A DNA stretch of 21,868 nt from Candidatus Thorarchaeota archaeon SMTZ1-45 (GCA_001563335.1 LRSL01000113.1:1-21868), one strand, 5' to 3'; numbered from the stretch's first letter, positions 4,226 through 21,868 are shown. Made by a program: numbers and translations. Notes: a model not told the origin generated them from the sequence alone.

Positions 4226-4422
4226 AGAGTTTTAAGCACAGAATGAGAACAATTGATAGGAGAATTGATCGCTCTTTCAGATTTCTATTTGATACTTTGA
4301 AAAGAAAACATCAATAGCTTCTCCTGATTGTCTAGAAGATAATACACCATTTTATCAGGGACTTAAGTAAGTTCTATTGCTTTTGTAACTTGAAGAGAGG
4401 TATGAGCTAGCTAGATGATCAT

Positions 4423-4911: not shown

Positions 4912-5027
4912 AAGACCATTCTCCTAACAATGAACTCAATACTTCAGTTACGTGATTTATTTAATAATCGGTTGATACTGAGGTTCTTCACAATCAAATA
5001 ATAACCGGAGATTCTGTATATACCCAG

Positions 5028-5060
5028 CTCATACGAGGTAACAATAAGCAAGGGGCTTTC
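5028..5060 (+). repeat. Promoter repeat P4 (diverged)
   Basis: ctcatacgaggtaacaataagcaaggggctttc versus native ctcatacgaaggaactataagcagggtactctc. Confidence 0.75.
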
Positions 5061-5074
5061 GACCGGGTCATCAT

Positions 5075-5776: not shown

Positions 5777-5906
5777 GCTCCCACTCAGAGTGTTTCTTGA
5801 AGCGGTATGCTATAAGGATAACTGCGAATGGATGCTTTCAAGTTTTTAGTAGGAGAAAGTCATGCAGTTACAATTCGAGTGTAGATCGCATAGAAGTGTT
5901 ATAAAA

Positions 5907-5950
5907 GCCTCAGTCGTAGGAACTATAAGCAGGGCACTCTCCCCACTCAC
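5907..5950 (+). repeat. Promoter repeat P3
   Basis: gcctcagtcgtaggaactataagcagggcactctccccactcac versus 8707-8750 gcctcatacgaaggaactataagcagggtactctcccctctcgc. Confidence 0.95.
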
Positions 5951-5981
5951 TTCAAGAGGAGAAAACAGGTGAATTGAATCT

Positions 5982-6716
5982 TCACCTAATGAATGGCGGA
6001 GGAACTAATCTGAAGTAATAGGATAGTAGTACAAGGAAGACCCAGAAGATGAGTGTAGACACAAGGTATCTAAGAGGCCGCCCACGCGCCAAGGCGCTGA
6101 AATGAAGTGATTCAGGCAACTGCAGTCGAATTGGTAGAATGAAGGGAGTGCTTTGCTGGTACTGCACAAATGAATCTCCAAACTCTTTACTCAACCAGTA
6201 ATCCTCAAGGTCAGCAACCAGAATTAATAGAAATAGAACTGAACACACAGACACCAGATCACCAGGTCTTGTGGCTGGAAGAAGCAGACGTGAGAAACTG
6301 GTCTTAAGTGGAAAAGCTAGAAGGTACAACATGAGTAGGATTCCCAAGTGTTGAGGATGCCGTACCCACCCATAGGGGCCGTATGTGACTAGACCTTCTT
6401 TATGTATACGTGCCCTAGCAAGAGTGACTAGCCCATAACAGAGAAGGAATAGACCAAAGCAGAACATAAGAACTTGCGAGAACCGGAATGCAACTGCTAT
6501 TCCGGTTTCAAGTCCTCCAGGAGAAGAAGGATCGAACATATACACATAGCCAGTCCAGCTATTTGAGTAGGGAACTATGTAGCTGAGGAGCTCCCACGAG
6601 AAATACCAGCTAGCTAGTATCCAGACCATTGGTGTCAGTATGCCAGCGACAATTGGCAGATAGAGGCCAACAGATATAGCGGCAGCGGTTATGTTGCTAA
6701 CGACCCTTTTTAACAC
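5982..6716 (-). CDS. Isoprenylcysteine carboxyl methyltransferase (Ste14/ICMT/PEMT)-family membrane protein
   Basis: Signature LVTYGPYGWVRHPQHLG, then LED..LSKEFG..F..YQ..TPFILP; multiple TM helices. Confidence 0.85.
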   Translation of the reverse strand: MLKRVVSNITAAAISVGLYLPIVAGILTPMVWILASWYFSWELLSYIVPYSNSWTGYVYMFDPSSPGGLETGIAVAFRFSQVLMFCFGLFLLCYGLVTLARARIHKEGLVTYGPYGWVRHPQHLGILLMLYLLAFPLKTSFSRLLLPATRPGDLVSVCSVLFLLILVADLEDYWLSKEFGDSFVQYQQSTPFILPIRLQLPESLHFSALARGRPLRYLVSTLIFWVFLVLLSYYFRLVPPPFIR

Positions 6717-6834
6717 TAGCTGAGTCCTCCCTCACCGAAAAGATGCTACAGTGCATATGCTATATTTCGACCTCCAATGTCAAGAAGATTTTGTTCTCGG
6801 CACGCTAGACAGACTCTAAGGGTATATCCGCCCA

Positions 6835-6865
6835 ATACGAGGGAACTATAAGCAGGGCACTCTCC
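6835..6865 (+). repeat. Promoter repeat P2
   Basis: atacgagggaactataagcagggcactctcc; the 20-bp core is identical to P1 and P3. Confidence 0.95.
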
Positions 6866-6907
6866 AAACTTTCTCTATAGGGATACAGAGCAGAGGTTAT
6901 CTATTAT

Positions 6908-7525
6908 TTACGGTTGTTTGACCATAACCCAATGGAGGATGTTGGCTATGGGCAATGTGAATGAGTCAATAACATCGAAGCCGTAATGTTTGTAAATTTG
7001 TACAAGACCTTCATCCTGAGTTTCAAGGACGCAGGGTTTGTTTTGTGAACTACACATTGAGAGTACAGGTCGGACAAGCTTGCTTGCAAGACCTTTCCCT
7101 TGATAATCTGGATGAACTGCCAGTGATCCTAAATACCAATGGGGCTCAGAAATACACTCATCTCTCTTACTGACTACAAAACTCTCTACTTCTCGCATTC
7201 TTCTTAGAGTCTTGGAACCAGCGGCTCGATACAGTCCTATCCCTCCCGTTCTAATTGCTCTCAACCAACTGAACTCATTGTACTCCGATTGTGTAAGGAT
7301 AACAACGCCCTCAATGTTTTCAGATGTAGCAAGGATTTTTCCATAGAGGAAGCCATTCTTAACACGGTAATTAAAGAACTTTGGAAGGAATCTCAACCTG
7401 CTTTCTGGTTCCGGTAAGAAATAACACAATAGATGATCATCAAAAAAAGCCTGAACTAAAGTTTCAGTGACCTTCTTTACGTCCCTTTTTGTTACATGGT
7501 AGGGTTCAGGACTCGTGTTTTGCAT
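6908..7525 (-). CDS. GNAT-family N-acetyltransferase
   Basis: WYLGSLAVHPDYQGKGLASKLV (acetyl-CoA motif A), then LET...YKHYGF. Confidence 0.9.
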   Translation of the reverse strand: MQNTSPEPYHVTKRDVKKVTETLVQAFFDDHLLCYFLPEPESRLRFLPKFFNYRVKNGFLYGKILATSENIEGVVILTQSEYNEFSWLRAIRTGGIGLYRAAGSKTLRRMREVESFVVSKRDECISEPHWYLGSLAVHPDYQGKGLASKLVRPVLSMCSSQNKPCVLETQDEGLVQIYKHYGFDVIDSFTLPIANILHWVMVKQP

Positions 7526-7622
7526 TGGTAGTCAGTTTTTATTAAAAGACCTTTCTGATATACCTTAGGATGGCTTGAGAATTAAGATTCATGAATATTA
7601 CTCTTCTTCAACGCAGGACAAA

Positions 7623-7653
7623 CCTTATGCGAAGGAACTATAAGCAGGGCACT
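7623..7653 (+). repeat. Promoter repeat P1
   Basis: ccttatgcgaaggaactataagcagggcact; ends 6 bp before the stop codon of the convergent epimerase gene. Confidence 0.95.
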
Positions 7654-7659
7654 TGTCTT

Positions 7660-8598
7660 TCATGGTCCGGATTGGTTTAGGACTGTGCCTTCATGTAGAT
7701 TCTCGATCGTGGCTTTGAGACCCTCTTTATAGGAGGGGTACTCCAGCTCCCAGTCAAGCTCTCTTTTGGCCTTCTCGTTAGTCACCACACAGTCTATCTG
7801 CATAATGCTTAGAAGGAAACCACCAAGGACGATTCGAGCGATGAACATTGGAATAGTTCGTGGCTTTGGCAGTCCCATGCACTCCGCCATGTGCTCTGTG
7901 AATTCTCGCGTGGTACACGGAGTATCGTCAGCTATGATGAATGATTCACTCACAGGCTGTTTCTCTACTGCAAGAACAAAGGCCTGAGCACAGTCATCGA
8001 CATGAACCCTCGGGATGTGGTTGTCACCTCTCCCGAAGACGCCGGAGCGCCCATTCTTCATCATCTCGTACATCTTGAGGAACTGGCCACCCGGTCCATA
8101 GATCTGACCCGGGAGCATTATGATGAGTGGTTGTCCCTCCTTCTTTGCCCTAGCAATAAGCACGTCAGCCTCTTCGCCAGCCTTCGTGAGACCCGTCCTG
8201 ACAAGTGGCCAAGACTCGTCAGCTACCTGTCCCTGCTTAGTGCTGTAGGCAGTGCCAAGAGTCAGTATGGTCGGGCAGTCAAGTTTCTTCCCGATAGTGA
8301 GAGCGGTCGACACGAACTTGGTCGTCCTCTGCTTAATCTGAGCGAACTTGCTCTTTGATATTCTTCCGAACTCGAGAGGCATGGCTACAGAAATCACACA
8401 GTCCTGGGAACTTATGTTGTCTATGAACGCGTCCGGCTCCATAAGGTCGCCGACTATTATTTCGATGCTCCTGTTACGAAAATATTCCGCCGCGTCAGTT
8501 CGACGGGTGAGTATTGTGACCTCATGACCATGCGACGAAAGTCTGGAAACTATCCTTGAACCCAGAAATCCAGTACCACCAAGCACAAGTACTCTCAG
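7660..8598 (-). CDS. NAD-dependent epimerase/dehydratase (extended/atypical SDR)
   Basis: (M)RVLVLGGTGFLG Rossmann motif, PGQIYGPG and VHVDDCAQA. The start is probably CTG at 8598 (GGTGA SD 6 nt upstream, in-frame stop just before) rather than GTG at 8586. Confidence 0.9.
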   Translation of the reverse strand: MRVLVLGGTGFLGSRIVSRLSSHGHEVTILTRRTDAAEYFRNRSIEIIVGDLMEPDAFIDNISSQDCVISVAMPLEFGRISKSKFAQIKQRTTKFVSTALTIGKKLDCPTILTLGTAYSTKQGQVADESWPLVRTGLTKAGEEADVLIARAKKEGQPLIIMLPGQIYGPGGQFLKMYEMMKNGRSGVFGRGDNHIPRVHVDDCAQAFVLAVEKQPVSESFIIADDTPCTTREFTEHMAECMGLPKPRTIPMFIARIVLGGFLLSIMQIDCVVTNEKAKRELDWELEYPSYKEGLKATIENLHEGTVLNQSGP

Positions 8599-8706
8599 AA
8601 TGAGTCACCGATTGGCAGTCATAAATAAGAGATATTTAACTTGTTCATTGCAGTATTTTTAAAACGTCACAAAGAAGGTTTCTCATTTTGCGAGGAGGGA
8701 TAAGAC

Positions 8707-8769
8707 GCCTCATACGAAGGAACTATAAGCAGGGTACTCTCCCCTCTCGCCCGCTGGCAAGACTCTAGC
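8707..8769 (+). promoter_or_regulatory. Putative BRE/TATA promoter of the acyl-CoA dehydrogenase gene (source of repeats P1-P5)
   Basis: Purine-rich CGAAGGAA (BRE-like) directly before CTATAAGC (TATA-like, ~8723-8730), ~60 bp upstream of ATG 8786. GAGGT SD at 8776-8780. Confidence 0.7.
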
Positions 8770-8785
8770 AATCAAGAGGTAGTTT

Positions 8786-10030
8786 ATGATGCATTTTGAA
8801 GAGTCGGATGAAGAAAAGATGTTCCGCGAGGCAGTGCGTGAGTTCGCTCAGAAATACGTCGCGCCTGCGTGGAAAGAGTATGATGAACACACTCACGAGG
8901 TTCCGCGAGACCTCATCAAGAAGATGGCAGACCAGATGTTGTGGGCACCCACTGTGTCAGAGGAGTATGGTGGAGCCAATCTCTCTTGGGTGATGTCATG
9001 CATCGCCGCAGAGGAGCTTGCGAAGGCAGACCTCTCCATTGCACTCCCAGTCATGTACCTTGTTGAGGCTTCATGGGCGTTTATCTTTGACAAGTATGGC
9101 ACTCCCGAGGCGAAGGCTGAGATCCTCCCGCGTGTCACAAAGGGAGACCTGTTCTTTGGTATCGCAACCACTGAACCAACTGGTGGCTCTGACCTCGTCA
9201 ACTCGACCAAGACCACGATCAAGCCAAAGGGTGACAAGTTTGTCATCAATGGTGAGAAGGTGTATATCTCCGGCGTGGCTGAGTCCGAGAAGTACGGTGG
9301 TGTATACTGGACACTGGCTAAGTCGGACCCGAAGGGCGACCACAAGGCATTCGATGGGTTCATTCTCCCGCTGAACATGGGTGATGGACTGCATCCTGGA
9401 ATCACAACCACGCTGTTTGAGGACATGGGGCGGATGGGTGTGTCCTGTGGTGGATTCAACATCGAGAATGTGGAGATTCCGAAGCACTACATCATCGGCG
9501 AGCGTGGGAGAGGATTTTATTATGCCATGATGGGTTTCAGTGCAGCCCGCGTGTTAATCGCAGCCACTTGCCTTGGTGCCGCACAAGCATGTTTTGACAT
9601 TGGTGTTGACTATGTTAAACAACGCAAGCAGTTCGGACGACCACTCGCGGCTTTTGAAGGCATAATGTTTGAAGGAGTCGATTCATGGATGGCAATTCAA
9701 GCTGACAGACATCTAACATATCATGCAGCCTGGATCATGGATGAAGTCTATAGTAGAAACAACAAAAACTACGACCATCTCGATATTGCCAGGTACACCG
9801 CTGCAGCCAAATACAAAGCACCACACGATGCTCTTGACATCATTACTCGTGCCATGACTTGGCACGGTGCCTTTGGATACTCCAAGGAATGTCCCCTCGA
9901 AGCTTCTTATAGGGGTGTTCGTTCATACACTGTTGGAGCTGAAGGGGGGTCTCATATACAGAAAATCGTCATGGGTCGAGAAATTTTCGGACCCGAATGT
10001 CTTCCATATCGTCAGGAAAAGCAGATGTAA
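8786..10030 (+). CDS. Acyl-CoA dehydrogenase (anchor gene of the array)
   Basis: Family motifs: SEEYGG, FGIATTEPTGGSD, INGEKVYIS, IGERGRGF, R-x-QFGRPL, HGAFGYSKE and catalytic-region GAEGGSHIQK; 414 aa. Confidence 0.96.
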   Translation: MMHFEESDEEKMFREAVREFAQKYVAPAWKEYDEHTHEVPRDLIKKMADQMLWAPTVSEEYGGANLSWVMSCIAAEELAKADLSIALPVMYLVEASWAFIFDKYGTPEAKAEILPRVTKGDLFFGIATTEPTGGSDLVNSTKTTIKPKGDKFVINGEKVYISGVAESEKYGGVYWTLAKSDPKGDHKAFDGFILPLNMGDGLHPGITTTLFEDMGRMGVSCGGFNIENVEIPKHYIIGERGRGFYYAMMGFSAARVLIAATCLGAAQACFDIGVDYVKQRKQFGRPLAAFEGIMFEGVDSWMAIQADRHLTYHAAWIMDEVYSRNNKNYDHLDIARYTAAAKYKAPHDALDIITRAMTWHGAFGYSKECPLEASYRGVRSYTVGAEGGSHIQKIVMGREIFGPECLPYRQEKQM

Positions 10031-10044
10031 TCAAAATCAATGAA

Positions 10045-10064
10045 AAGGGAGCCTATGCTCCCTT
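10045..10064 (+). terminator. Hairpin after the ACAD stop codon
   Basis: aagggagc-ctat-gctccctt, a perfect 8-bp stem followed by a T-rich run. Confidence 0.7.
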
Positions 10065-10079
10065 CTTTCTATTTATATC

Positions 10080-10382
10080 TCACTCTTCATATTCGTATAG
10101 ATTCTTGTTGCATTCTGGACATTGTTCAGGCGGTTTTTCTCCCTGATTAAATTTTAAATAGCATCCTCCAGACCTACATTCAACCCAATAGATATCATCA
10201 GAGTCAGGAGGTTCAAATTCAGCAAAGTGGTCATCAACAGGACCCATAAGTCTGAATCCTTCTTCCTTTAGCTTCGTAATAAATTTCAATCTGTCCTTGA
10301 GAGCCTTAATCACATCAGTGATGCTCTTACAATTATAGCCAGTAATCATTTGTTTGAAAAAGAATGCAAGGGCAATTTTCAT
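10080..10382 (-). CDS. Small hypothetical protein with C-terminal Zn-ribbon (paralog A)
   Basis: YWVECRSGGC...CPEC; aligns along its length with the neighbouring ORF. Confidence 0.75.
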   Translation of the reverse strand: MKIALAFFFKQMITGYNCKSITDVIKALKDRLKFITKLKEEGFRLMGPVDDHFAEFEPPDSDDIYWVECRSGGCYLKFNQGEKPPEQCPECNKNLYEYEE

Positions 10383-10414
10383 GTATTATTCCTGTATTAG
10401 GACACATTTCATCC

Positions 10415-10768
10415 TCATTCATGTGGCTTCACTCTATGACACTGGTTGCAGCTTGTTGGTTGCTGTGTTCTTTTTAGCAACTCTAGATGATATCCACAAG
10501 TCCTACAACGACCCCAATAGAATCCCTTACGCTTTGGAGGGATAATCTCGAGATAATCCTCAGCATCTCCCTCTCGGACTCTGTAACCTTCATTCTTCAA
10601 TTGATTGAAATATTCAATCTCTTTCTCAATTGCATGGATTATATCATCAATCGACTCACAATCTGCTTCAAGACTTAGGAATTTGAAACGATGGATACTC
10701 GGTATACAGTCAAGACATCCACAGTCGAATGAATCTAACCCAGTATTTCTACAACGTTCCTCATACAC
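10415..10768 (-). CDS. Small hypothetical protein with C-terminal Zn-ribbon (paralog B)
   Basis: YWGRCRTCG...CNQC, plus an extra N-terminal Cys cluster (C...DCGCLDC). Confidence 0.75.
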   Translation of the reverse strand: MYEERCRNTGLDSFDCGCLDCIPSIHRFKFLSLEADCESIDDIIHAIEKEIEYFNQLKNEGYRVREGDAEDYLEIIPPKRKGFYWGRCRTCGYHLELLKRTQQPTSCNQCHRVKPHE

Positions 10769-10950
10769 TCACCAACACCTCAAAAGAAAATGGAGTACTG
10801 TCGTATTTAGCCTCAACGGATTTTCAGATTCTGAGAGTTCTATCCCTTTTTCTTCATATTTTCAGAATTTTCAAGGGGATCTCCTGATGCATATCGACAG
10901 ACTGCGTTTTCTATAGTATTTCTGTGAACAGTAGTGCCATAGTCATCAAA

Positions 10951-10995
10951 TTTGGAGCAAATTATCTGCTGTACAAGCAGGAGAAACAAATGTAG
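10951..10995 (+). repeat. ACAD tail copy T1 (short, degenerate, no clear hairpin)
   Basis: tttggagcaaattatctgctgtacaagcaggagaaacaaatgtag = FGANYLLYKQEKQM*. Confidence 0.85.
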
Positions 10996-11086
10996 AATCT
11001 TTGAGTGAGTTTAGCTGAGATAGATGTAAATTACATGTATGTAGAGATGTTTCAAACTCTTATTCGAAGAGGGGGTACAGCAAACC

Positions 11087-11542
11087 TTGTCTAGCGAAAA
11101 ACTTCATGATGCTTTAAAAAATTGGATAATGGAAAAAGCTGAACTAAAGAAAGATGCAAGGAAAAACAAATACTACGATCGTGTCTTTTCAGGGGATATG
11201 GAGCCAGTTGACATCAGGGTCAGAATGAAGCATTTTGATTATCGACCAGATATTGTTCTAGTTCGGAAAGATAGAAAGTATCTTGTAGAGATTGCTTTAA
11301 GCGAGGATTGGCGTGCATTAGTCGGAGAGCTGTCACTTGCTAAAGCTTGTCGTGCTGCAAATGTACTTTTCATCGTTTCTGGATGGGATAAAGATGCGCT
11401 TGATGATATTTTGACTGTAATGGGGGAGGTTCTTGACTACGAAAAGTGGTATTATATCATCCTGGATGACAATGATGTAAATAATTTAGAAAAAGCAAAG
11501 AAAGTTGTAAGTAAATGGCTGACTGATTGGGAATGGATCTAA
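11087..11542 (+). CDS. Hypothetical protein, possible PD-(D/E)xK nuclease fold
   Basis: N-terminal helix S..LHDALK, then YRPDIVLVRKDRKYLVEIA (PD...E-x-A). Fold assignment is from motif only. Confidence 0.55.
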   Translation: MSSEKLHDALKNWIMEKAELKKDARKNKYYDRVFSGDMEPVDIRVRMKHFDYRPDIVLVRKDRKYLVEIALSEDWRALVGELSLAKACRAANVLFIVSGWDKDALDDILTVMGEVLDYEKWYYIILDDNDVNNLEKAKKVVSKWLTDWEWI

Positions 11543-11553
11543 ACTATGACCTA

Positions 11554-11645
11554 ATGTCACGAAAGATATTCAGACCAGACTATCTGCCGTACAGGCAAGA
11601 GAAACAGATGTAGTTTCAAGTTTCAATCGAGAGAGGTGTTCCTCT
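11554..11645 (+). repeat. ACAD tail copy T2 plus hairpin
   Basis: 11554-11613 = MSRKIFRPDYLPYRQEKQM*, then tttcaagtttcaatc and agagg-tgtt-cctct. Confidence 0.95.
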
Positions 11646-11714
11646 TTATCCCCTCATTTTTATATTGATTACTAGATTGGGTGGAGTGTGTTTCGTTCTC
11701 TGGTGGGGATTGAG

Positions 11715-13682
11715 ATGAAGGACCAAGATAGAAAACCGGACCCATTACTTCGAGCGATAGACATCACCATTATCATCTTGATTATCTCCTGCCTTGGCGT
11801 AGGAGTCATCGTGGGATATAATAAACCTTCAAGAGGGACAATAGAACTAATCGAGGGAACTGAGATTAGTGGGGTTCCTAGCCAGAATGTAACGAAATCA
11901 TTCTCTGCAACCGACTCAGACTTGGTTTTCCTGAATGAACCGCCAAGTGTGAATAGTCACTGGTTTTATTCATCTGACTATTATGGGGATGAATGGGGTG
12001 TCCCCGTCGTTGAATCAAGGAAGGCGAGGTCGTCCCTCTCCTCAGAGGGACTGTTGCTAGAACTGAGTGGAGCCGAGGTTCGTTTTACAACTGGAGTGAG
12101 GATTCCCCTGAACGCATGTAGCACTTTGAATTATGCAACCTCTTTGGGAGTTCTCAATGGACAGGTGGAGATAAACTTCAGAGTGTGGTTCAGAAAGAGT
12201 CCTTATACAGTCATGGGTGACAACCTAACTAGGGAGAAGAGCATAAGTCTAACTCCAGCTAATGGGACTGCAAATCTCTCATTCAATATTCCTATTGAAA
12301 GTTTCAATGCCTCTGTGCCTCAGTTGTCTATAGAGTCTTGGGTCCGTATCACAATAGAATCTCAGTTTCCGACTCGATTATTAGTTGGCAATGTAAGTAT
12401 AAGTGGTCAAGCAACATATGACCTTTGCAGGGTTTCAGTTGATGTCCAAGCGCTTGATGGGAGAAGCATATATGCACCTCCGTATATGACGGATCTTTGG
12501 CCCTACCCCCTCATCAACCTCACAAGACAGGACGCTCCTAGTACATCTTCATTGTTTTACATCCTGCGTTCAAATGATGTCCTCTATCTCGAGCCCGGAA
12601 ATTACTCGGGATTTGCGTACTGGTCGCCGAGAATAGTAAGTGATTCTGACAACCCTTATTGGCAATCAAGGTTAGCCATCAATATCACGATTGCCACAAA
12701 CGAAACAGCGATCTGGGAGATAAGGATGCAATGTACTAGATTGTTCATCACAATAGATCCTATGATTCCTGAAACGTTTGTTCAAATACAAACTGTGGAC
12801 GACCACTTATACTATTCAATTGGTAGTTTTAATGCTTCAGTGAGTGATTTCATCTACCTACCAATATCAAATGGTTCAGATTCTTTCGATATTTTTATTA
12901 AAACGAATCCCAGCACTCAATACAACTATAGAGATTTGCCCGTAGTTTCCTATTTCCCAATGGAGAATCCACTCGAAATTGATTCCAACCATGAGTGGCA
13001 TCTCGAAGTAAAGCTTCCAATCGATGTTTTCTTGGGAGTTGGCTTCATTGGCGAAGATATAACAATTATAAATCTAGGAGTTATTACGCTACTTCTTATG
13101 ATTGGGCGAGTCCTGATTCACTTCAAGAAGATAGGTTTCATTTCGATACTAAAAGACCCACGCCTTATTCCGTTCGTGATTCTGTGCATTAGTCTGATCT
13201 TTCCTTGGGCCGAATACTCACACACCACATCAGAATGGTTGGGATCGGACTCTACAATCCTTTTCACCAAAATAAGTCCGCTTGCCCTACTTCTAATGTG
13301 GAGCAAAGATAGCATCATCATTTTGCAACCGGGAATATACTGGTTTGAATCTTACATCCAATATCATATAGGATGGATGATAAGTATTACATATGATGCA
13401 TGCGCATTATTCCTAAGTTCTGTCTTCCTATTCTGGATTCCCGTTATCTACTGCTTTACTACGATTGGTAGAGGCGACAAGAGGAATGCAGACTATTTAC
13501 TGTATTATCTACTTGCATTAGGAGCACCGACATTGCTAGCCTGCTTGCCATTCATACCAAATTCGAGGTTGATTTTTGAGGGATTGGGAATAGGAGCATA
13601 CCTTGCAATGTCAACAATCCCAGTGTTCCTGTTGGTGAATTTGCTGTATCGATTTAGGACTCGTTTGATGGATACTCAATAA
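11715..13682 (+). CDS. Large hypothetical membrane protein with extracellular domain
   Basis: N-terminal TM, long beta-rich region with many N-x-S/T sequons, and ~5-6 C-terminal TM helices. ATG 11715 follows a GGTGG SD; an alternative GTG start lies at 11688. Confidence 0.8.
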   Translation: MKDQDRKPDPLLRAIDITIIILIISCLGVGVIVGYNKPSRGTIELIEGTEISGVPSQNVTKSFSATDSDLVFLNEPPSVNSHWFYSSDYYGDEWGVPVVESRKARSSLSSEGLLLELSGAEVRFTTGVRIPLNACSTLNYATSLGVLNGQVEINFRVWFRKSPYTVMGDNLTREKSISLTPANGTANLSFNIPIESFNASVPQLSIESWVRITIESQFPTRLLVGNVSISGQATYDLCRVSVDVQALDGRSIYAPPYMTDLWPYPLINLTRQDAPSTSSLFYILRSNDVLYLEPGNYSGFAYWSPRIVSDSDNPYWQSRLAINITIATNETAIWEIRMQCTRLFITIDPMIPETFVQIQTVDDHLYYSIGSFNASVSDFIYLPISNGSDSFDIFIKTNPSTQYNYRDLPVVSYFPMENPLEIDSNHEWHLEVKLPIDVFLGVGFIGEDITIINLGVITLLLMIGRVLIHFKKIGFISILKDPRLIPFVILCISLIFPWAEYSHTTSEWLGSDSTILFTKISPLALLLMWSKDSIIILQPGIYWFESYIQYHIGWMISITYDACALFLSSVFLFWIPVIYCFTTIGRGDKRNADYLLYYLLALGAPTLLACLPFIPNSRLIFEGLGIGAYLAMSTIPVFLLVNLLYRFRTRLMDTQ

Positions 13683-13691
13683 AGAACTTAT

Positions 13692-13785
13692 ATGGGCAGA
13701 GAGATATTCGGACCGGACTATCTTCCATATCGCCAAGAGAAACAGATGTAGTTTCTAGAAATGGAGAGAGAGGGGATTCCTCTCT
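13692..13785 (+). repeat. ACAD tail copy T3 plus hairpin
   Basis: 13692-13751 = MGREIFGPDYLPYRQEKQM*; hairpin agagagg-ggatt-cctctct (13767-13785). Confidence 0.95.
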
Positions 13786-13862
13786 TGCTCTTTACTTACG
13801 ATTGACTTTTCTCATTTGAGCCTTTTTTGAAAAAAGAGAAATAGAAGCTAGAACAAGTAGGA

Positions 13863-14060
13863 ATGATCAAAATGACGAGGGATATGTGGAAGGTAGCCAG
13901 GTGGATAGCAATCGTGTATTTGATACTTGGAGCTGTATTTACAGCCTTGTGGTGGTTTGGATTCATTGTACTTGGTGCTGGCAATCCGGTTTCGGAGTTC
14001 TTCTTTTATTTCTTCTTGCCAGTATGGGCTTTATTTACATCCTTTATTCCACCATTATGA
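13863..14060 (+). CDS. Small hypothetical membrane protein (2 TM)
   Basis: 65 aa, strongly hydrophobic; the only plausible gene between T3 and T4. Confidence 0.6.
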   Translation: MIKMTRDMWKVARWIAIVYLILGAVFTALWWFGFIVLGAGNPVSEFFFYFFLPVWALFTSFIPPL

Positions 14061-14136
14061 TATGATTGAAAACTTGGATTTCCCCTTCATGTTATCAACA
14101 CTTGCAAGCGGCAACTACAGGTGCATAAATGCTAAT

Positions 14137-14237
14137 ATTGTCATGGCACGCGAGATATTCGGACCCGACTATCTACCGTACAGGCAAGAAAAACAGATGT
14201 AGATTCAAACTTTCAAACGAGAGAGGAGCTTCCTTTC
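14137..14237 (+). repeat. ACAD tail copy T4 plus imperfect hairpin
   Basis: IVMAREIFGPDYLPYRQEKQM* (stop at 14202); gagagg-agctt-cctttc. Confidence 0.95.
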
Positions 14238-14268
14238 GAAGAAAAGTGGAGTCTGGACTGTCTACTAG

Positions 14269-14374
14269 AAGGTGGTAATGGCACGGGAGTTACTGGGAGC
14301 AGAAAACCTCCCCTACCGCCAAGAGAAACAGATGTAGATTCAAGCTTCAAATCGAGAGAGGGTTCTCCTCTCTC
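14269..14374 (+). repeat. ACAD tail copy T5 plus hairpin (divergent allele)
   Basis: KVVMARELLGAENLPYRQEKQM* (stop at 14337); gagagagg-gttct-cctctctc (14354-14374). Confidence 0.93.
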
Positions 14375-14384
14375 CTCACTATTT

Positions 14385-14894
14385 CTATCTCTGAAAGAAC
14401 TTCCGTGTGATCCTCTTTTCCTCTGAGAATTTCATTTCAGCCTCATCAAGGACAGAACGATAGCCTTCCTGTTCTTCACCTCTCATTTTGGCGGCTTTCA
14501 TTTGATCCAGTTTGTCTTCCCAGAATTCCACAATCTCAGGATGATTTTCAAAATAGTCTTCCAATCTATCATGTATCTGCCTAAGAAAGCCCTGGGGGTC
14601 ATACGCAATTCTCGACAAGATAGTTGTGTACCAAAGAAATGGATAAGTTTCAATAGACTGCAAAACCATATTCAGTGGTTCGACACTCATGTCGATCTTG
14701 ATTCCTCTTCGGTACTCCTCTATGAATTGATGTGTTTCAATGCTCTCTGAAATCACCCCGAGATCAACGTCAGAATCAGGTCTAATATCACCAGTCACTA
14801 GACTTCCAGCAATTTCAATACCAACTATTGATGGGTCTTTCTTGAGTTCCTCGACAACTTCTTCTGCAATTTTTTCCTGTAGGGTTTCCATCAT
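14385..14894 (-). CDS. Nucleotidyltransferase domain protein (Pol-beta/MNT/KNTase-like)
   Basis: IAGSLVTGDIRPDSDVDLGVI contains the GS...DxD motif; third Asp in GIKIDMS. Confidence 0.85.
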   Translation of the reverse strand: MMETLQEKIAEEVVEELKKDPSIVGIEIAGSLVTGDIRPDSDVDLGVISESIETHQFIEEYRRGIKIDMSVEPLNMVLQSIETYPFLWYTTILSRIAYDPQGFLRQIHDRLEDYFENHPEIVEFWEDKLDQMKAAKMRGEEQEGYRSVLDEAEMKFSEEKRITRKFFQR

Positions 14895-14918
14895 CTACAC
14901 AACTTTGGCTCATTCAAC

Positions 14919-15941
14919 TCATTCAACAGTATCGTTGAATAGGACTATCCTGTAACGTGCCTTGTTCTCCTTTACCTTCCGAATCGCCTCGTTTACCTTC
15001 GTCATAGGCATCAACTCCACTTTAGGCATGATGTTGTACTCCTGTGCGAACGAGAACATCTCCCGCATTGTGGTCCGATTGCCGAGGAAAGAACCAGTGA
15101 TCGACAGTTGACGTGCCACGAGTTCAGTCGAATTGAACTCCACGTCTGGAAAGCCGATAAGGACCAGCCTGCCCTTTTTCTTCAAGATATTCAATAGTGC
15201 CTCCCAGTTGATTTTGTTTGAGGCGGTGCACAGAAGCAGGTCAAAACTAAGCATAGCCTCTCGCAAGCTTGTCTGGTCGTCCGAAGAGAGGAAGTGGTCT
15301 GCACCAAAGGAAAGCGCCTCCTGTTTCTTCTCCGGAGAGGAGGAAATGGCTGTGACATCGTAGTCGAGAGCCCGTGCGAACTGTAATGCAAGGTGACCCA
15401 GACCTCCCACACCGATGATACCAATTTTCCGCGCGGGTTGCGTTGCGTACGAACGAAGCGGCGAGTAGACCGTGACCCCGGCACACGTTAACACAGCGGC
15501 CACCTCAGAAGGCATGTCGTCAGGCAGCTGATAGACAAAGCGGCTATCCGCGATGACGGAGGACGAGAAGCCACCATAGGGGACCCAGGTTCCTGATGGA
15601 ACAATGTCCAAGCAAAGCTGGTCTTCTCCCTGCAAACACCACTCACATTGCATACAAGACCGACCCTGCCAGCCGATGGCAACTCGATCCCCTTCCTTCA
15701 AACCGGATGCCGCATGGCCCACTTCCGACACATGTCCAACGATTTCATGACCTGGGACGAAGGGAAAGGTGGTTATATCGTAGTAATTGTCGATGGCATG
15801 GATGTCGCTATGGCACACACCGCAGTGCGTGACAGAAACCCTGACATCATGCTCCCCCAGTTTGGGTGGCTCGTAGGTGATTGGCTCGAGCGGTTGCCCT
15901 ACCGCCTTCGCTGCGTATCCCAAGACTTTTGAAGAAGACAT
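14919..15941 (-). CDS. ahr: Zn-dependent NAD(P)-dependent alcohol dehydrogenase / aldehyde reductase (CAD family, Ahr/YjgB-like)
   Basis: CGVCHSD, PGHEIVG, structural Zn site CMQCEWC...C, GVGGLGHLALQFA and the C-terminal ARYRIVL. Confidence 0.9.
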   Translation of the reverse strand: MSSSKVLGYAAKAVGQPLEPITYEPPKLGEHDVRVSVTHCGVCHSDIHAIDNYYDITTFPFVPGHEIVGHVSEVGHAASGLKEGDRVAIGWQGRSCMQCEWCLQGEDQLCLDIVPSGTWVPYGGFSSSVIADSRFVYQLPDDMPSEVAAVLTCAGVTVYSPLRSYATQPARKIGIIGVGGLGHLALQFARALDYDVTAISSSPEKKQEALSFGADHFLSSDDQTSLREAMLSFDLLLCTASNKINWEALLNILKKKGRLVLIGFPDVEFNSTELVARQLSITGSFLGNRTTMREMFSFAQEYNIMPKVELMPMTKVNEAIRKVKENKARYRIVLFNDTVE

Positions 15942-16043
15942 TCGCAGAACCTCTCCTGTTCAGTAGCGCGCATCCAATGGAACAGCTGAGCATGCTGTCG
16001 GACGTTGATTGAACAGAGAATATTAGTATTCCGTTAAACAGAG

Positions 16044-16149
16044 AAGATTGTCATGGCACGAGAGATCTTCGGACCCGACCTTCTGCCGTACAGACAAGAG
16101 AAACAGATGCAGGTTCAAGTTTCAAACCGAGAGAGGTTCTTCCTCTCTC
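16044..16149 (+). repeat. ACAD tail copy T6 plus hairpin (stop mutated TAG>CAG)
   Basis: KIVMAREIFGPDLLPYRQEKQMQ; gagagagg-ttctt-cctctctc (16129-16149). Confidence 0.95.
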
Positions 16150-16243
16150 AATCCCTTTTCTTTATCGACTCAATATTTTGTTCGAACAATTGATAAGATA
16201 ATATATTATCGGTGGAAACCGCGATACCTGCAATAGCTTTGAA

Positions 16244-17821
16244 TTGGGAGGAGAAAGGTTGAGAGAGAAGCAATTCAGAGTAGTCTTCCTATCTATCGCT
16301 TTGTGTGCATTACTCACAATACCTCAGATGGCGACAACAGGTAGGCAACAATCAACGAATGTCTTCAACTTGGGTCAAGACTCAGGCATACCGTATGAGG
16401 GAGCTGAAGTGGTTATTCAAGAGGGGAACTCCCGGACAAAATACAAATTCGTGGCAAGCTCATCATTCCAAGGAATTCCTGATTTCCGCATGGGAGCCTG
16501 TTTCTATAGTGTCTACACATGGCGCGATCTCCCATATCTGAACACGTGGATGCCAAACATCATTGAATTAGGCATATGGCGCTTCGATACATGTGTGGAC
16601 GAGAATGAACCACCAATTTATTGGGAATACAACAATGAACAAGAATTTCCTGAGGAATACGACCAATTTATCGATGGGTTGAATGAAAATGGATTGACCG
16701 TTAATTACATGCTGCACTTCTGGGACAAGACTGGCCATGCACTTGGGGAGGAACTGTCGACACCACGCTTCCAGTCTGAGGAGCAAATCCAAGATTTCTT
16801 GAACTACACACGCTTTGTGGTCAGTCACTTTGAAGGCCGTGTTCAATACTACACGATATGGAGTGAGCCAGATGCTTGTCCTGGAATCAAGTGCATTGAG
16901 GTGGAGGACTACATCAATCTCGTAAATCGAACTGTGCCAGTCATTCACGAGGAGGACCCTAAGGCAAAGGTGTCCATAGGCCCTAATGTTCTCTTCTTTG
17001 CGCAGGACTACCTCTCAGCTATCATTGAATCTGACATCATGACCATGGTAGACGTGATTCAATGGCATGGCATCTATAACGTGTTGCCTAACGATCAGTT
17101 TTATGGTGATTATTACTACCAATACCCTGCGATTGTTGAAGGAATCAGACAAACAGCTGCTGCCCATGGTTTCGACGGAGAGTGTTGGGCCACCGAAATT
17201 GGTTATAGTGCAGAGGAAAATGCTCCTGATCAGCCCTGGGGAGTAGTGGAAACCAGCAAACAAGCAGCCAAATATTCTTCACGCTCACTTGTCAAGCACC
17301 TAGGAATGGACATGGGCGTGGCTATGGGGAACTTACGATATGACAACCTTGAGATAGACCCTTGGTCGCAGCGTGCACTAGGCAACCTTTACAAAGTTTT
17401 GGCAGGGACTAACCCAGTCAGTCTTGCTGTTGAATTTGAGGATGAACCCACAAACGCCGTAACTAACTCATTTGCGTTGCCTGATGGCGACACGTTATTC
17501 GCACTATGGACTGATAGCGAAACAATTGAAAATGACCTAGGTGTAAGGACAACCCTTACATTTCCTGACCTGCCTGCTCAAAAAGTAACAGCGATTGATG
17601 TACTCAATGGCTTCGAGCAGGACCTCATCATCGGAGAAGTAAATGGGGATCTAGTCATCCGCAACATCTTCGTTATGGACTATCCAATCATCTTACTTTT
17701 CGATAGCGATGCTCCTTTTACTCTTGAACCAGATCTGAGTCCGTTTATGGTGGTGGGATTTGGTTCAGTGGGTGTTGTTACGATCTTGATTGTCATTCTT
17801 TTCATTAAAAAGAAAGAATGA
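16244..17821 (+). CDS. Secreted, C-terminally anchored clan GH-A glycoside hydrolase-like protein (GH5/GH39-like)
   Basis: Signal peptide, YYTIWSEPD (acid/base motif, cf. WNEPD), IQWHG, CWATEIG (nucleophile motif), C-terminal TM and KKKE. Confidence 0.75.
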   Translation: MGGERLREKQFRVVFLSIALCALLTIPQMATTGRQQSTNVFNLGQDSGIPYEGAEVVIQEGNSRTKYKFVASSSFQGIPDFRMGACFYSVYTWRDLPYLNTWMPNIIELGIWRFDTCVDENEPPIYWEYNNEQEFPEEYDQFIDGLNENGLTVNYMLHFWDKTGHALGEELSTPRFQSEEQIQDFLNYTRFVVSHFEGRVQYYTIWSEPDACPGIKCIEVEDYINLVNRTVPVIHEEDPKAKVSIGPNVLFFAQDYLSAIIESDIMTMVDVIQWHGIYNVLPNDQFYGDYYYQYPAIVEGIRQTAAAHGFDGECWATEIGYSAEENAPDQPWGVVETSKQAAKYSSRSLVKHLGMDMGVAMGNLRYDNLEIDPWSQRALGNLYKVLAGTNPVSLAVEFEDEPTNAVTNSFALPDGDTLFALWTDSETIENDLGVRTTLTFPDLPAQKVTAIDVLNGFEQDLIIGEVNGDLVIRNIFVMDYPIILLFDSDAPFTLEPDLSPFMVVGFGSVGVVTILIVILFIKKKE

Positions 17822-17883
17822 ATCATACTCGCACTAGTTCAGATTCAATGATGGATCGTAACTGCTAGATTAGCTGTACCGAG

Positions 17884-17990
17884 AAGATCGTCATGGCGCG
17901 TGAGATATTCGAATCTGAGTATCTGCCGTACAAGCAAGAAAAACAGATGTAGTTTCGAATTCAGTAGAGAGAGGTTCTTCCTCTCTCTAC
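17884..17990 (+). repeat. ACAD tail copy T7 plus hairpin
   Basis: KIVMAREIFESEYLPYKQEKQM* (stop at 17952); perfect 11-bp stem gtagagagagg-ttctt-cctctctctac (17964-17990). Confidence 0.95.
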
Positions 17991-18076
17991 GTTTCTTTTC
18001 AATACAATGGACAACGTGCAAATCTTATTAGAATCCACTTTGCATTCAAATCGGTTTAATACTGGAGGAAGTCTAA

Positions 18077-20264
18077 TTGAAGAGTAGGACTGCTACGATT
18101 CGCAACATCGTAGTAGTTGTCGCTGCGATCACTCTCATTTCAAGTTCCATTCCTTTTGATAGTTATTCAAATCCAACTGCGAGAAACGATATGATGAACA
18201 GTTCAGAGAAACCAATCAATGTCTACCTTGCGAATGTTCTACATGGACCCATCATCATAACCTCAAACAATGACTTCTCTGCACAGGGATTCCTAGGAAG
18301 TGGCTCTGAATCGAGTCCATATCTCATTGAGAACTACAGCATCAACACGACAGGCACCTGTATTTCTATATCGAACACTGATGCGCATTTCATAGTCCGG
18401 AAATGTCTACTCACGGGAGGGGATGATGGAGATGGGATACTCATGGACAATGTGATGAATGGGGAGATAAGTAACAACAGCATATCTCAAAAGGACAGAC
18501 CCCTACATCTTCTCCTTTCGTCTAATAATATGATAGTTAATAACACGATCTCAGAAAACCGCTTACAAGTGACCCTCCACTCCTCTACGAATAACGAGGT
18601 CCTTGAGAACAATATTTCTGACAACTCAGGAGGTCTCTACCTCTTATCGTCTCCAAACAACCTTGTCGCTAATAACAGCATCCTAGCAGGTTTTGGGACT
18701 GGTATAATTCTTGAAAACTCCCCTGAATCAACACTTACAAAAAACATCATCTCAAACAACCAAGGAGGAATTTACCTTCATAGCTCATCAAGAAGCATCA
18801 TTACAAATAATACATTATCAGAAAATATCGGATATGGAATCATTCTTGATGACTCATCGGAAGTCAGACTTTCATCAAACATCTTACTAAACAATGGATT
18901 TGGTATTCTGGGAAATAGCGTTGAGGAATGGAAGCACGATATTTCTACTGACAATCTTGTGAATGGAAAGCCCATTGGTTACTTCTGGGATTTGCATGGG
19001 GAACGCATAGACGAGAATCCATATTATCTGATGATCTTCGCAAACTGTACTAACATCACAGTAGAGAATATCGTCTTCGATAGAAGTAGCATTACCTTAG
19101 GATTTTCATCAAACTGCACACTGAATAATAACACCTCCTTAGAGAGTCAAGGATTTGGAATCTCCTTTTACTACTCCGTGGACAATAAAGTGACCAACAA
19201 TAGATGCAATAGTCTTTCTTTGAGGTATTCATCAAACAACGACTTGTTTTACAACACAATCTCCGGGACTAGTTATGTTGGCGTAAATCTCAGAGTATCC
19301 TCGTACAACAGAATTGAAGGAAACACTATTTCGGGATTTGAAGATGGTCTGTGGCTCTATGAGGAATCTACCCATAACCATGTGGTGAACAACACAATAT
19401 CTGAATCCCTTATGTATGGAGCAAATCTCCTTTACTGGTCCAATAATAATACGTTCTCAGACAACCATATCGACGGCGTGCATCTTCACGAAGCACATAG
19501 CAATGATTTCGTGAACAACACCTTTTCAGGTGGAGATATCGCGGGAGTAGACATGTTCGGTTCTTCAAATATCAAGATATTGAACAACAATATTTCTGGG
19601 AATAGTATCGGTATGTCACTCAAGTGGTGTCTTTCTAAATTCCGGAACACACGACAACCTACTGTGTCTCAATGTCTTTGGGAACAATGGAGATGCCGAT
19701 GCACGAGATAACGGTAATGGAAATCAGTGGAACAGCACAGGAATTGGCAACTATTGGTCAGACTATCCCGGAACTGGAGCCTACTACATTCCGGGAGATG
19801 CTGGCGCCATCGATTACCATCCCCACGGATACACTGACACAGAACCACCTATAATCAGCAATCCAGCAGATATTGAGTACATTGAGGGGACCTTGGGTAA
19901 TAGCATCACATGGAGTCTAACTGAAGATCATCCCTCTCACTATGTGATATATCGGAATGGTATTCTGGTTGATTCAGGAGATTGGGATAGTGATTTGATT
20001 AACACAAGCATCGATGGCCTGAATCCAGGAGCCTACTACTTCACAATTGTAGTCTTTGATATCTACAACAATTGGAGCAGTGATGAGGTCATTGTCACTG
20101 TGTTAGCAGCGGAACCTACTTCAATTCCAACAGTAACTACGACATCAACCATTCCCTCTGAGAATGATATTCCTCATCCTATTCTGGTTGTGATATTAAT
20201 CGCAGAAATTGGAGTCGTAATGATACTGCTGGTCTTACTCTCTAAACAACAACGTGGACTGTGA
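18077..20264 (+). pseudogene. Frameshifted NosD-like parallel beta-helix surface protein with Ig-like domain and TM anchor
   Basis: Frame 1 (from 18077) has Asn-rich beta-helix turns up to GNSIGMSL (~19620). A shifted frame continues SSGVFLNSGTHDNLLCLNVFGNN...GIGNYWSDY...DTEPPIISNPADIEYIEGTLGNSITW and runs straight into ORF 19893-20264. Confidence 0.85.
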
Positions 20265-20276
20265 AAAAGAGAATAG

Positions 20277-20379
20277 ATTGTCATGGCTCGTGAGATCTTC
20301 GGACCTGACTATCTGCTGTACAGGCAAGAGAAGCAGATGTAGTTTCAAACTTCAATCGAGAGAGGTTCGCCCCTCTCTC
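20277..20379 (+). repeat. ACAD tail copy T8 plus hairpin
   Basis: IVMAREIFGPDYLLYRQEKQM* (stop at 20342); gagagagg-ttcgcc-cctctctc (20358-20379). Confidence 0.95.
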
Positions 20380-20445
20380 CTCCACTCATTTTTCATTCAT
20401 TGATCCGCATAGGGTGTCCATCATTCGACCTGAGTCAAAGCTAGC

Positions 20446-21192
20446 TTAGAATAGAACAACCAATCGAATCGTACCCCATACTAAATGCCACCATATGTAG
20501 TAGATAATCCGAAACCAGTACATTGAGAGAAAGTCATACTTCTTGAGGATGGACAGCTGGACGTAGCTAAAAAGAAACAGACGTATACCCTCGATCGCTG
20601 AAATCCATATTGGATGTCCAGTACCACTGAAATCAAGCTGATATAGAGGCTCCAAGAGAGAGATGATGACAATGATAACGAGAAAGATTCGGTCGAAGTC
20701 CCTACCTTTGAATACTGAGGTGAGAAGGGCCAGTAAGAGAGTAAGAGGGAGGAGATGAAAGAGAATCTCCACAACAAAGCCCATTGTTGGATAGAAGAGA
20801 AGGGATTTCGGTAGGAGAACATTGGTGTCCTCAGGATAGGGAAAAACTAGATCTACCAAGATTGCACCAAGTGCGAATGGAACTGTCGGGAGTGAGATGA
20901 GGAGCAGGCTTTTCAGATTCTCTCGTTTGTAGATATCAACCCATTCCTGTGAGAGTAGAATGGACACCAACCCTAGTCCAAGGACGATGATGATTGAGAT
21001 CATGAACACAGGATTGATACTCCCGAAAAAGATTTCGAATCTAGGAGTTCCAATCAAATAGAGTGCTACCGTGAAGAAAAGTATAATGAGTGAAATCGTG
21101 ACAAAGACACCTATCTGCAATTTTTCGGTTGACAATAGTTCCTTCAGTGATGATAGTCTATGCATCCGCTCATCTATGGGATCCATTTTCAT
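20446..21192 (-). CDS. Hypothetical multi-pass membrane protein (weakly CPBP/CAAX-protease-like)
   Basis: About 7 TM segments; VVEILFHLLPL and YYIWWHLVWG motifs. Confidence 0.7.
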   Translation of the reverse strand: MKMDPIDERMHRLSSLKELLSTEKLQIGVFVTISLIILFFTVALYLIGTPRFEIFFGSINPVFMISIIIVLGLGLVSILLSQEWVDIYKRENLKSLLLISLPTVPFALGAILVDLVFPYPEDTNVLLPKSLLFYPTMGFVVEILFHLLPLTLLLALLTSVFKGRDFDRIFLVIIVIISLLEPLYQLDFSGTGHPIWISAIEGIRLFLFSYVQLSILKKYDFLSMYWFRIIYYIWWHLVWGTIRLVVLF

Positions 21193-21260
21193 GCATGATG
21201 AACAGCTTCACTCCCGCAAAAGTATTGTGCCGTGGTTCCATAAAGATGAGGTGCGTAATG

Positions 21261-21360
21261 GTCATGGCACGCGAGATCTTCGGTCCAGACTATCTGCTGT
21301 ACAGGCAAGAGAAACAGATGTAGTCTCATTTTGTATTTCGAGGGAGATTCATGCTCCCTC
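21261..21360 (+). repeat. ACAD tail copy T9 plus hairpin
   Basis: VMAREIFGPDYLLYRQEKQM* (stop at 21323); gagggag-attcatg-ctccctc (21340-21360). Confidence 0.95.
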
Positions 21361-21402: not shown

Positions 21403-21868
21403 TCACTGGTCCGCTGAGTCAGGTTCAAGAAACTCGTCGATATCGATGTGCTCGAGGGGCCTTCTATTACGGAACCTAGAAGCTAATCTATACCCTATTG
21501 GCACAATGATTTCATCGTAGCCACCTCTTCTCTTACTGAACCACGAAGCTATGCTATAACTTGTTGGCACAATGATAGAATCCTTGACACCTCTAGCCGA
21601 AACCTTCCGCCATCCTGTACCTAGCAATGTGATTCCTCCGAATCCGATCAGGAGGAGAACTAAATAAACAGACTCCTTGGATAGAGTAGTTATATTGTTC
21701 TCCACGGTGTTGGAATCTGAGTCAACGAGGTAGATGTCATGTTCAGTGTTGTTCAGGCAGGTGTTGTGTGTCACGGTGTTGTTATCTGAGCGATAGAGGT
21801 AGATGCCAATCCTGTTGTAGTTACAGATGTTGTTGGACACAGTGTTTCGATGTGAGTCAGCGAGGTAG
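21403..21868 (-). CDS. C-terminal part of a NosD-like beta-helix membrane-anchored protein (starts beyond the right edge)
   Basis: Frame is open to the window edge (YLADSHRNTVSNNICNYNRIGIYL...), followed by a TM helix and a cytoplasmic tail with a 22-aa duplication. Confidence 0.8.
   Translation of the reverse strand, partial: YLADSHRNTVSNNICNYNRIGIYLYRSDNNTVTHNTCLNNTEHDIYLVDSDSNTVENNITTLSKESVYLVLLLIGFGGITLLGTGWRKVSARGVKDSIIVPTSYSIASWFSKRRGGYDEIIVPIGYRLASRFRNRRPLEHIDIDEFLEPDSADQ

Follow-up and report, generated by a model that had tools for sequence, protein, structure and literature searches.

Repeated ends of an acyl-CoA dehydrogenase gene as borders of a putatively homology-driven cassette array in Candidatus Thorarchaeota

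The stretch of DNA analysed here, hereafter the window, is one whole contig of 21,868 nucleotides (LRSL01000113.1) of the metagenome-assembled genome (MAG) of Candidatus Thorarchaeota archaeon SMTZ1-45 (GCA_001563335.1; 119 contigs, 87.7% complete). It carries an array of gene cassettes that are bordered by copies of the 3' end of a single host gene. This anchor gene encodes an acyl-CoA dehydrogenase (ACAD) of 414 aa (8786-10030, plus strand), the N-terminal (PF02771), middle (PF02770) and C-terminal (PF00441) Pfam domains of which (Acyl-CoA_dh_N, _M and _1) all score over the cut-off (E 1e-29, 8e-13 and 1e-29). The final 19 ACAD codons and the stop (9971-10030, plus strand) form the resident, or working, tail, which encodes MGREIFGPECLPYRQEKQM and which makes up, together with a spacer and a hairpin GGGAGC..GCTCCC, a tail unit at 9971-10064 (repeat family D1). 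Eight full displaced tails with hairpins follow on the same strand. They encode MSRKIFRPDYLPYRQEKQM (11554-11647), MGREIFGPDYLPYRQEKQM (13692-13785), MAREIFGPDYLPYRQEKQM (14143-14236), MARELLGAENLPYRQEKQM (14278-14371), MAREIFGPDLLPYRQEKQM (16053-16146), MAREIFESEYLPYKQEKQM (17893-17986) and MAREIFGPDYLLYRQEKQM (20283-20376 and again 21264-21357), each closed by a stop except that at 16053, the stop of which has become CAG. The hairpin of the last one reads GAGGGAG..CTCCCTC, and the array continues past the contig end. These nine full tails, resident and displaced, all have the same orientation. A tenth copy (10951-11002, plus strand, family D3), which an earlier note on this DNA lacked, retains the 3' part only; its nhmmer match covers 10951-11000 and model positions 46-95. 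Tail spacing within the window ranges from 135 to 2390 bp, and one cassette is virtually empty, with 41 nt (14237-14277) between two full tail units.

The repeated unit exceeds the 60 nt of the final codons and stop and measures about 110 bp. It begins about a dozen bases (two to four codons) 5' of an ATG, in frame with ACAD ..K-I-V, and continues through the 19 codons, the stop and the spacer into a hairpin of the type GAGAGAGG/CCTCTCTC. Among the 145 displaced tails that reach the hairpin, 89 have a stem of 7 bp or more, as against 21 of 145 shuffles. Because the working genes of array-free species carry a similar hairpin 3' of the ACAD stop, the unit is simply the native 3' end of ACAD including a terminator-like hairpin.

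A second array lies on the other side of the gene. Six copies of a segment from immediately upstream of ACAD, here called heads, separate other cassettes between 2875 and 8757 on the plus strand (2875-2926, 5020-5076, 5900-5956, 6824-6881, 7618-7670 and 8703-8757; families D4, D5 and D8). The head segment is about 50 nt long with the core CCTCATACGAAGGAAC, and its last copy stops 29 nt short of the ACAD start. The head-array cassettes lie mostly on the minus strand and encode a DNA_binding_1 protein (6-O-methylguanine DNA methyltransferase DNA-binding domain), membrane proteins, a GNAT acetyltransferase and an epimerase. Within this genome, an nhmmer search finds the head segment nowhere but upstream of ACAD. 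In relatives, the segment likewise occurs immediately 5' of ACAD, and extra copies lie farther out on the same side (loci L051, L061, L063, L066 and others). Locus L063 has four head copies and their cassettes between ACAD and the epimerase gene that directly adjoins ACAD in the present genome, and one of these copies retains a degenerate ACAD start.

The tail copies differ mainly at synonymous sites, as the earlier note had stated from the DNA alone, and the individual readings on which it based this statement hold. The Arg of M-A/G-R is written CGA, AGA, CGC, CGG and CGT, the Pro of G-P-D is written CCA, CCG, CCC and CCT, the Ala is written GCA, GCG and GCT, and the Arg of Y-R-Q is written CGT, CGC, AGG and AGA. 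The 60-nt frame is free of indels in all nine full copies, the conservative variant is the copy at 14278, which reads KVV-MARELLGAENLPY, and the changes taken for later decay are present at 16053 (TAG>CAG), 11554 (G>R) and 17893 (G>E). When the nine full copies are compared in all 36 pairs, the Nei-Gojobori proportions of synonymous (pS) and nonsynonymous (pN) differences are 0.669 and 0.105, giving a ratio of 0.157 with a codon-bootstrap 95% range of 0.076-0.259; the dN/dS comparison that the note had proposed, carried out here as pN/pS, is therefore far below 1. The ratio is 0.179 (0.095-0.292) for the eight displaced window copies alone, 0.208 among 130 gap-free displaced tails and 0.148 among the working tails of 29 species. 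The three tails at locus L029, one working and two displaced, specify an identical peptide while most of their silent sites differ (pS 0.67, pN/pS 0.021). The information content of codons 1-14 at codon positions 1, 2 and 3 is 1.37, 1.46 and 0.64 bits. Because this three-base periodicity is present across 218 displaced tails from many genomes, it is general and not a chance property of the window.

Slippage and unequal crossing-over can both generate direct repeats, and assembly may join MAG contigs wrongly where repeats occur, so that the copies could in principle be local duplicates of the resident tail undergoing neutral decay, or an artefact of assembly. According to our own derivation, neutral decay of displaced copies, with only the attached copy under selection, predicts a pN/pS of 0.5 to 1. 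Since the observed ratio ranges all lie below 0.5, with an upper bootstrap bound of 0.259 for the nine copies, local duplication followed by neutral decay is excluded, and the tails are moreover closer to the alleles of other species. An artefact is contradicted by the presence of arrays in MAGs of many independent studies and in a complete chromosome. Four public sequencing runs from four studies, none of them of RNA, contain the stretch as contigs, and in one of them (run X1) single Logan contigs span seven of the ten window tails. Either explanation deserves next to no credence. Relative to the window, the contigs of three public runs have 20 more letters after 10363 and 53 more between 19623 and 19624, so that two short pieces are probably missing from the MAG contig; the second place lies near the end of an ORF (open reading frame) for a NosD-type protein at 18077-19711.

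Each of the eight full displaced tails of the window agrees with the working tail of some other species at more of its 60 nt (48-54) than with the resident tail (39-48), which answers in the negative the question raised in the earlier note of whether they would group with the resident allele. The agreement is better still with tails that are themselves displaced in other genomes (49-58 of 60 nt). The resident peptide is MGREIFGPECLPYRQEKQM. Most displaced copies encode MAREIFGPDYLPYRQEKQM, with which ACAD ends in four other species, and the variant MARELLGAENLPY at 14278 agrees with the GAENLPY of working tails in a more distant clade (loci L040, L049 and L050). These comparisons support an origin of the window tails from different ACAD alleles. 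The note had gone further and supposed that each tail once worked in a different donor. The part about different alleles stands, together with the rejection of local duplication; a working history is not demonstrable tail by tail, because the tails are mosaic and, in cassettes that different species have in common, the tail body is linked to neither neighbouring cargo. Furthermore, the silent-site signature would be no different if tails were filtered at integration, since a cassette that lands at ACAD has to bring a functional end with it. Donors can also be close kin, since the three tails of L029 encode an identical peptide at a pS of 0.67. The earlier inference was largely right, but it overlooked that the tails border a family-wide, two-sided cassette system.

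The array extends well beyond the window. Searched with an nhmmer profile built from the window copies, the same MAG yields 33 copies on five contigs (the window and contigs C116, C12, C65 and C61), with one orientation per contig. Because these copies are spread over five contigs, the array is several times longer than the window and has been split by assembly. ACAD orthologues of 80-91% identity occur in many Candidatus Thorarchaeota MAGs, and 220 tail copies were found by nhmmer in 65 of the 77 related loci fetched. Tail matches are present in 55 of 87 genomes and in 11 of 17 genera of the order. Four loci (L039, L045, L046 and L059) have ACAD with 10 kb of downstream flank yet no extra tail. 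The complete chromosome CP070761 holds a five-tail array (locus L104, 14132-19210; about 3.060-3.065 Mb) beside a minus-strand NosD gene; its tails share a signature of their own (MGRE.., TAC TTG CC.). A self-BLAST of the present genome for local dispersed repeats, as expected of other arrays of this kind, returned elsewhere only intragenic protein repeats (contigs C91, C66 and C114). Within the window there are no Rfam matches at gathering score, no tRNA and no tmRNA.

Displaced tails decay. Among 218 displaced copies, ATG, frame and stop all survive in 80, whereas 50 are damaged at the start or the stop codon and 88 contain gaps or are truncated. In the present genome, seven of nine displaced copies are intact on the gene-proximal contig, that is, the window, compared with none of nine on C61, the contig on which the array gives way to other genes. 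The tail profile was built from proximal copies, which biases the scores but not the frame status. The high intactness within the window and the low pN/pS would also be expected if the 19-codon ATG-to-stop frame were a selected multi-copy micropeptide gene, the alternative offered in the earlier note. However, the start-to-stop frame is not maintained across displaced copies as a micropeptide family would need, neither over the genomes at large nor at the far end of this very array. In addition, several working genes have Ile or Gln at the first codon, the codon-like conservation reaches the Ile-Val codons upstream of the ATG, and the copies match the working gene ends of other species. A micropeptide is therefore poorly supported by the sequences, and we regard it as very improbable.

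The cassettes between the tails carry cargo only and reshuffle between species. When tails from different sources are paired, the right cargo alone is shared in 8 pairs, the left cargo alone in 18 and both in none. For example, the window cassette at 13786-14142, to the left of the 14143 tail, is about 97% identical to a cassette at locus L076 that has different neighbours. The linkage of the tail to its cargo changes along the unit. At unit positions 19-30, the mismatch fraction is 0.48 for unrelated tails, which serve as baseline, 0.42 when the right cargo is shared and 0.16 when the left cargo is shared. The corresponding fractions are 0.30, 0.31 and 0.22 at positions 31-50, 0.30, 0.25 and 0.22 at positions 51-72, and 0.40, 0.22 and 0.37 at positions 106-127. 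Hence the bases before the ATG travel with the left cargo and the hairpin travels with the right cargo, and the coding body is near baseline for both.

Junctions were located by likelihood change-points in pairs with cargo at least 90% identical. An estimate was obtained for 10 of 13 left-shared pairs, one of which (the copy at 14250 of this genome against L076) was left out as an artefact of two tails 135 nt apart. In the remaining nine pairs, left linkage ends at positions 27-46 in seven, at 15 (interval 15-38) in one and at 82 in one. Right linkage begins at 69, 92, 114 or 130 in four pairs and, judged by eye, at about 49 in a fifth. Because the change-point estimates differ among pairs, the crossover lies inside the unit at a variable position. 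The tail body turns over faster than the cargo on either side, as expected of repeated single crossovers at varying points.

The tyrosine recombinase family PF00589 gives no match in this MAG, in CP070761 or in a third genome. Over the order, it is matched in 29 of 87 genomes and is absent from 33 of the 55 tail-bearing genomes, including the complete chromosome. Among the matches listed, no PF00589 integrase is on a tail contig except one that lies 1 Mb away. The family is missing from 58 of the 87 genomes, including 16 of the 24 of high quality (completeness of 90% or more, contamination of 5% or less), so that a universal XerA-type gene is not detectable in this lineage with the PF00589 model. 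The resolvase family PF00239 has no match in this genome or in CP070761. Pfam scans of the 23 window ORFs, of 32 ORFs on the other array contigs of this genome and of representatives of the recurrent cargo families reveal no recombinase. Folding of either strand of the tail gives an 8-bp terminal hairpin only (z -1.14 and -0.64) and no attC-like fold; the repeat is conserved in sequence with codon periodicity, and not in structure as attC is.

A dedicated site-specific recombinase may nevertheless be encoded elsewhere or on a helper, belong to an unrecognised family and act at the tail core, in which case the array would be a true analogue of integrons or pdif modules. The candidate core is a short dyad in the tail consensus, GAAAC-AGATGTA-GTTTC, over the last codons and the stop. 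Codons 15-19 and the stop are the most conserved block, with a mismatch fraction of 0.15 compared with 0.30 in the rest of the coding part of unrelated tails, left-shared pairs lose similarity right after the stop, and the architecture is integron-like in its cargo-only cassettes, reshuffled neighbours and diverse accessory functions. However, the conservation of the block comes mostly from the one- and two-fold degenerate codons of Q-E-K-Q-M, position 75 alone clearly exceeds the 1-bit expectation, and the junction estimates range from about position 27 to 130. Nor does the degenerate tail motif match any mobile carrier in IMG/VR. Head and tail repeats have no core in common, their local alignment scores (5.5 and 6.0) lying below the shuffle mean of 6.9. 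Because the two sequences are unrelated and both merely flank ACAD, a homology-based process is favoured over a single site-specific enzyme. Taken together with the distribution of PF00589 and the fold of the tail, these observations make such an enzyme unlikely, although it is an explanation to be taken seriously.

The inserts are flanked by partial 3' ends of the target gene that rebuild it, as is found for integrative elements that enter at 3' ends. Tandem accretion of such elements (virus, plasmid or island), the attP sites of which rebuilt the ACAD end and the integrases of which have since been lost, is a known route by which partial 3' copies of a target gene accumulate in tRNA islands and tycheposons (10.1101/2020.12.28.424599), and the tails do restore the ACAD end. 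On the other hand, the cassettes are short, as the spacing in the window indicates, no integrase or fragment of one is present among the array ORFs scanned, and the crossover does not fall at one fixed position in the few pairs available. Moreover, the same small cassettes recur as cassettes in other species with new neighbours, and the mirror array on the 5' side would not be expected. We therefore consider accretion of decayed elements improbable.

The region is best read as the gene-proximal part of a large cassette array, or flexible genomic island, that is anchored on conserved ACAD, with homology-driven Campbell-type insertion and excision at the ACAD ends and with selection keeping a working tail; we give this reading a probability of about 0.58. 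In such a process, recombination between the two tails that flank a cassette would release it from an array as a circle, and one Campbell-type crossover with a tail would then integrate the circle into a different array, often that of a different lineage. The crossover could occur anywhere within the shared ~110 bp. Because the crossover position is variable, we infer homology-driven recombination, and the agent would be host homologous recombination of the RadA type, not a dedicated site-specific recombinase. Upon insertion at the working tail, ACAD would receive a hybrid end, part resident and part cassette-borne, and the old end would be pushed downstream. Only cassettes encoding a functional C-terminus would survive there; only insertions with end-spanning homology would leave ACAD intact and hence persist, and the displaced end would mark the cassette border. 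The circulating pool of tails would be under purifying selection at the protein level, silent sites would drift between lineages, and a tail would decay once displaced. The same logic at the 5' end of ACAD would produce the upstream array of head copies.

Several points weigh against homologous recombination at the ACAD ends. Recombination over ~110 bp at 70-85% identity should be inefficient, and the model does not explain why ACAD was chosen as anchor. The junction estimates come from few pairs (nine left-shared and five right-shared) on MAG contigs possibly misjoined at repeats. No circular cassette or excision junction is seen in the four public runs, which are available as contigs only and give no evidence either way; the same contigs have no skipping or back-joining joints at tails, and their loose ends at 11564, 11614, 11617 and 21283 possibly reflect cross-mapping of other tails or branches of the assembly graph. 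In relatives, there is no rank-wise gradient of decay over the first ~10 kb (rank-1 tails intact in 6 of 14; Spearman correlation of rank with score +0.33). PF00589 is somewhat commoner where tails are present (22 of 55 genomes) than where they are absent (7 of 32), in a cross-tabulation made by hand of genomes that are not independent because of kinship. The negative result for recombinases covers the PF00589 and PF00239 searches, and Pfam reached part of the 579 array ORFs, other families not having been searched. Finally, the five-copy array of CP070761 has no orthologue of this ACAD upstream or anywhere in the genome (best match 33% identity). Because of this array, it must be accepted that arrays can persist without the anchor.

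The cargo of the downstream array (10065-21263, from ORF calls and Pfam) lies on both strands in mixed orientation. The first cassette has two small zinc-ribbon-like ORFs on the minus strand (10080-10382 and 10415-10768), which encode 100 and 117 aa with C-terminal CxxC..CxxC, have no Pfam family and resemble paralogues by eye. They are followed by an ORF at 11087-11542, a 664-aa membrane protein (11688-13682), a 65-aa ORF (13863-14060), a nucleotidyltransferase (14385-14894, minus strand) with a Zn-alcohol dehydrogenase beside it (14919-15941, minus strand), a 525-aa ORF (16244-17821), the NosD/beta-helix protein (18077-19711) with an accompanying ORF (19893-20264), and a 248-aa membrane protein (20446-21192, minus strand). 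When the 579 array ORFs are clustered, NosD/right-handed beta-helix proteins of surface type are by far the commonest cargo family, with 37 ORFs at 21 loci; members in the window lie at 2-631, 18077-19711 and 21403-21867. The other recurrent families scanned are metabolic or accessory, namely glutamine synthetase, hydrolases, dehydrogenases and flavodoxins. On contig C12 (L024) of this genome, a metallo-beta-lactamase-fold protein and two PF00144 genes (beta-lactamase family serine hydrolase) at 4379-9920 adjoin TetR and PadR regulators. A 606-aa ORF in the first cassette of L029 (11343-13163, minus strand) has a weak match to LAGLIDADG_3 (E 3.5e-5); this lead was dropped, as the ORF is non-recurrent in other arrays.

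Asgard archaea are central to ideas on the origin of eukaryotes, and little is known about the turnover of their gene content. With tails in 55 of 87 genomes, the arrays look like a major, family-wide and apparently integrase-free entry point for accessory genes. It is tempting to go further and to propose for Thorarchaeota an integrase-free cassette platform, in which both ends of one housekeeping gene serve as landing pads, circles move between lineages by ordinary homologous recombination in ~110-bp end copies, gene function polices these handles and silent sites record the donors; we hold this broader proposal tentatively, at somewhat less than even odds. If true, such a platform would be the functional counterpart of an integron, yet would require no enzyme dedicated to the task. 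Were homologous recombination indeed responsible, carrying a short gene-end copy would be enough to direct DNA to this locus, which may be useful once Thorarchaeota can be cultured. The literature searched, including the accessible parts of PMC9668308 and PMC8813620, contains no description of ACAD-end arrays, and supplementary integron/attC tables could overlap these loci.

Among known systems, tRNA and tmRNA islands and the tycheposons of Prochlorococcus are alike in that partial 3' copies of the target gene separate successive insertions, the incoming DNA supplies the replacement end, older material is pushed inward and decays, and the cargo serves accessory metabolism, as far as is described in 10.1101/2020.12.28.424599. 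In contrast, the target here encodes a protein, the cassettes are 0.1-3 kb long, no integrase is found, the junction is variable, a second array lies on the 5' flank of the gene and the host is an Asgard archaeon. Because the target is a protein gene, its copies hold a codon record, and the cassette borders become readable: silent changes point to donor lineages and lesions to age, a record that tRNA islands and attC sites lack.

Integrons have been reported in Archaea and are enriched in Asgard archaea, according to PMC9668308. Their arrays resemble the present one in being long and one-directional, with cargo-only cassettes that are bounded by a repeated site, reshuffled neighbours and diverse cargo. 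The array differs from them in that neither IntI nor any other tyrosine recombinase is found beside it or, in most carriers, in the genome, and in that its repeat is the end of a conserved host gene and not a structure-defined attC; the cargo orientation is mixed and the junction is variable. In pdif/Xer modules, tyrosine recombinases of the XerC/D type act at a 28-bp site. Such modules likewise lack a recombinase of their own and are bounded by repeated short sites, whereas neither a fixed site nor such an enzyme is found here.

The displacement of C-terminal ends in Rhs genes offers a further parallel. There, displaced 3' ends of a conserved gene pile up downstream, each with a conserved piece, and excision and insertion by homologous recombination via a circular intermediate, from a pool shared among strains, have been proposed (PMC2935791). 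The ACAD arrays correspond to this arrangement in having displaced ends downstream of an intact gene, conserved homology and a variable crossover. In Rhs genes, the tips differ from one another and are themselves the payload (PMC2935791), whereas the peptide encoded by the ACAD tails is the same, unrelated cargo between the tails forms the payload, and both ends of the gene are used.

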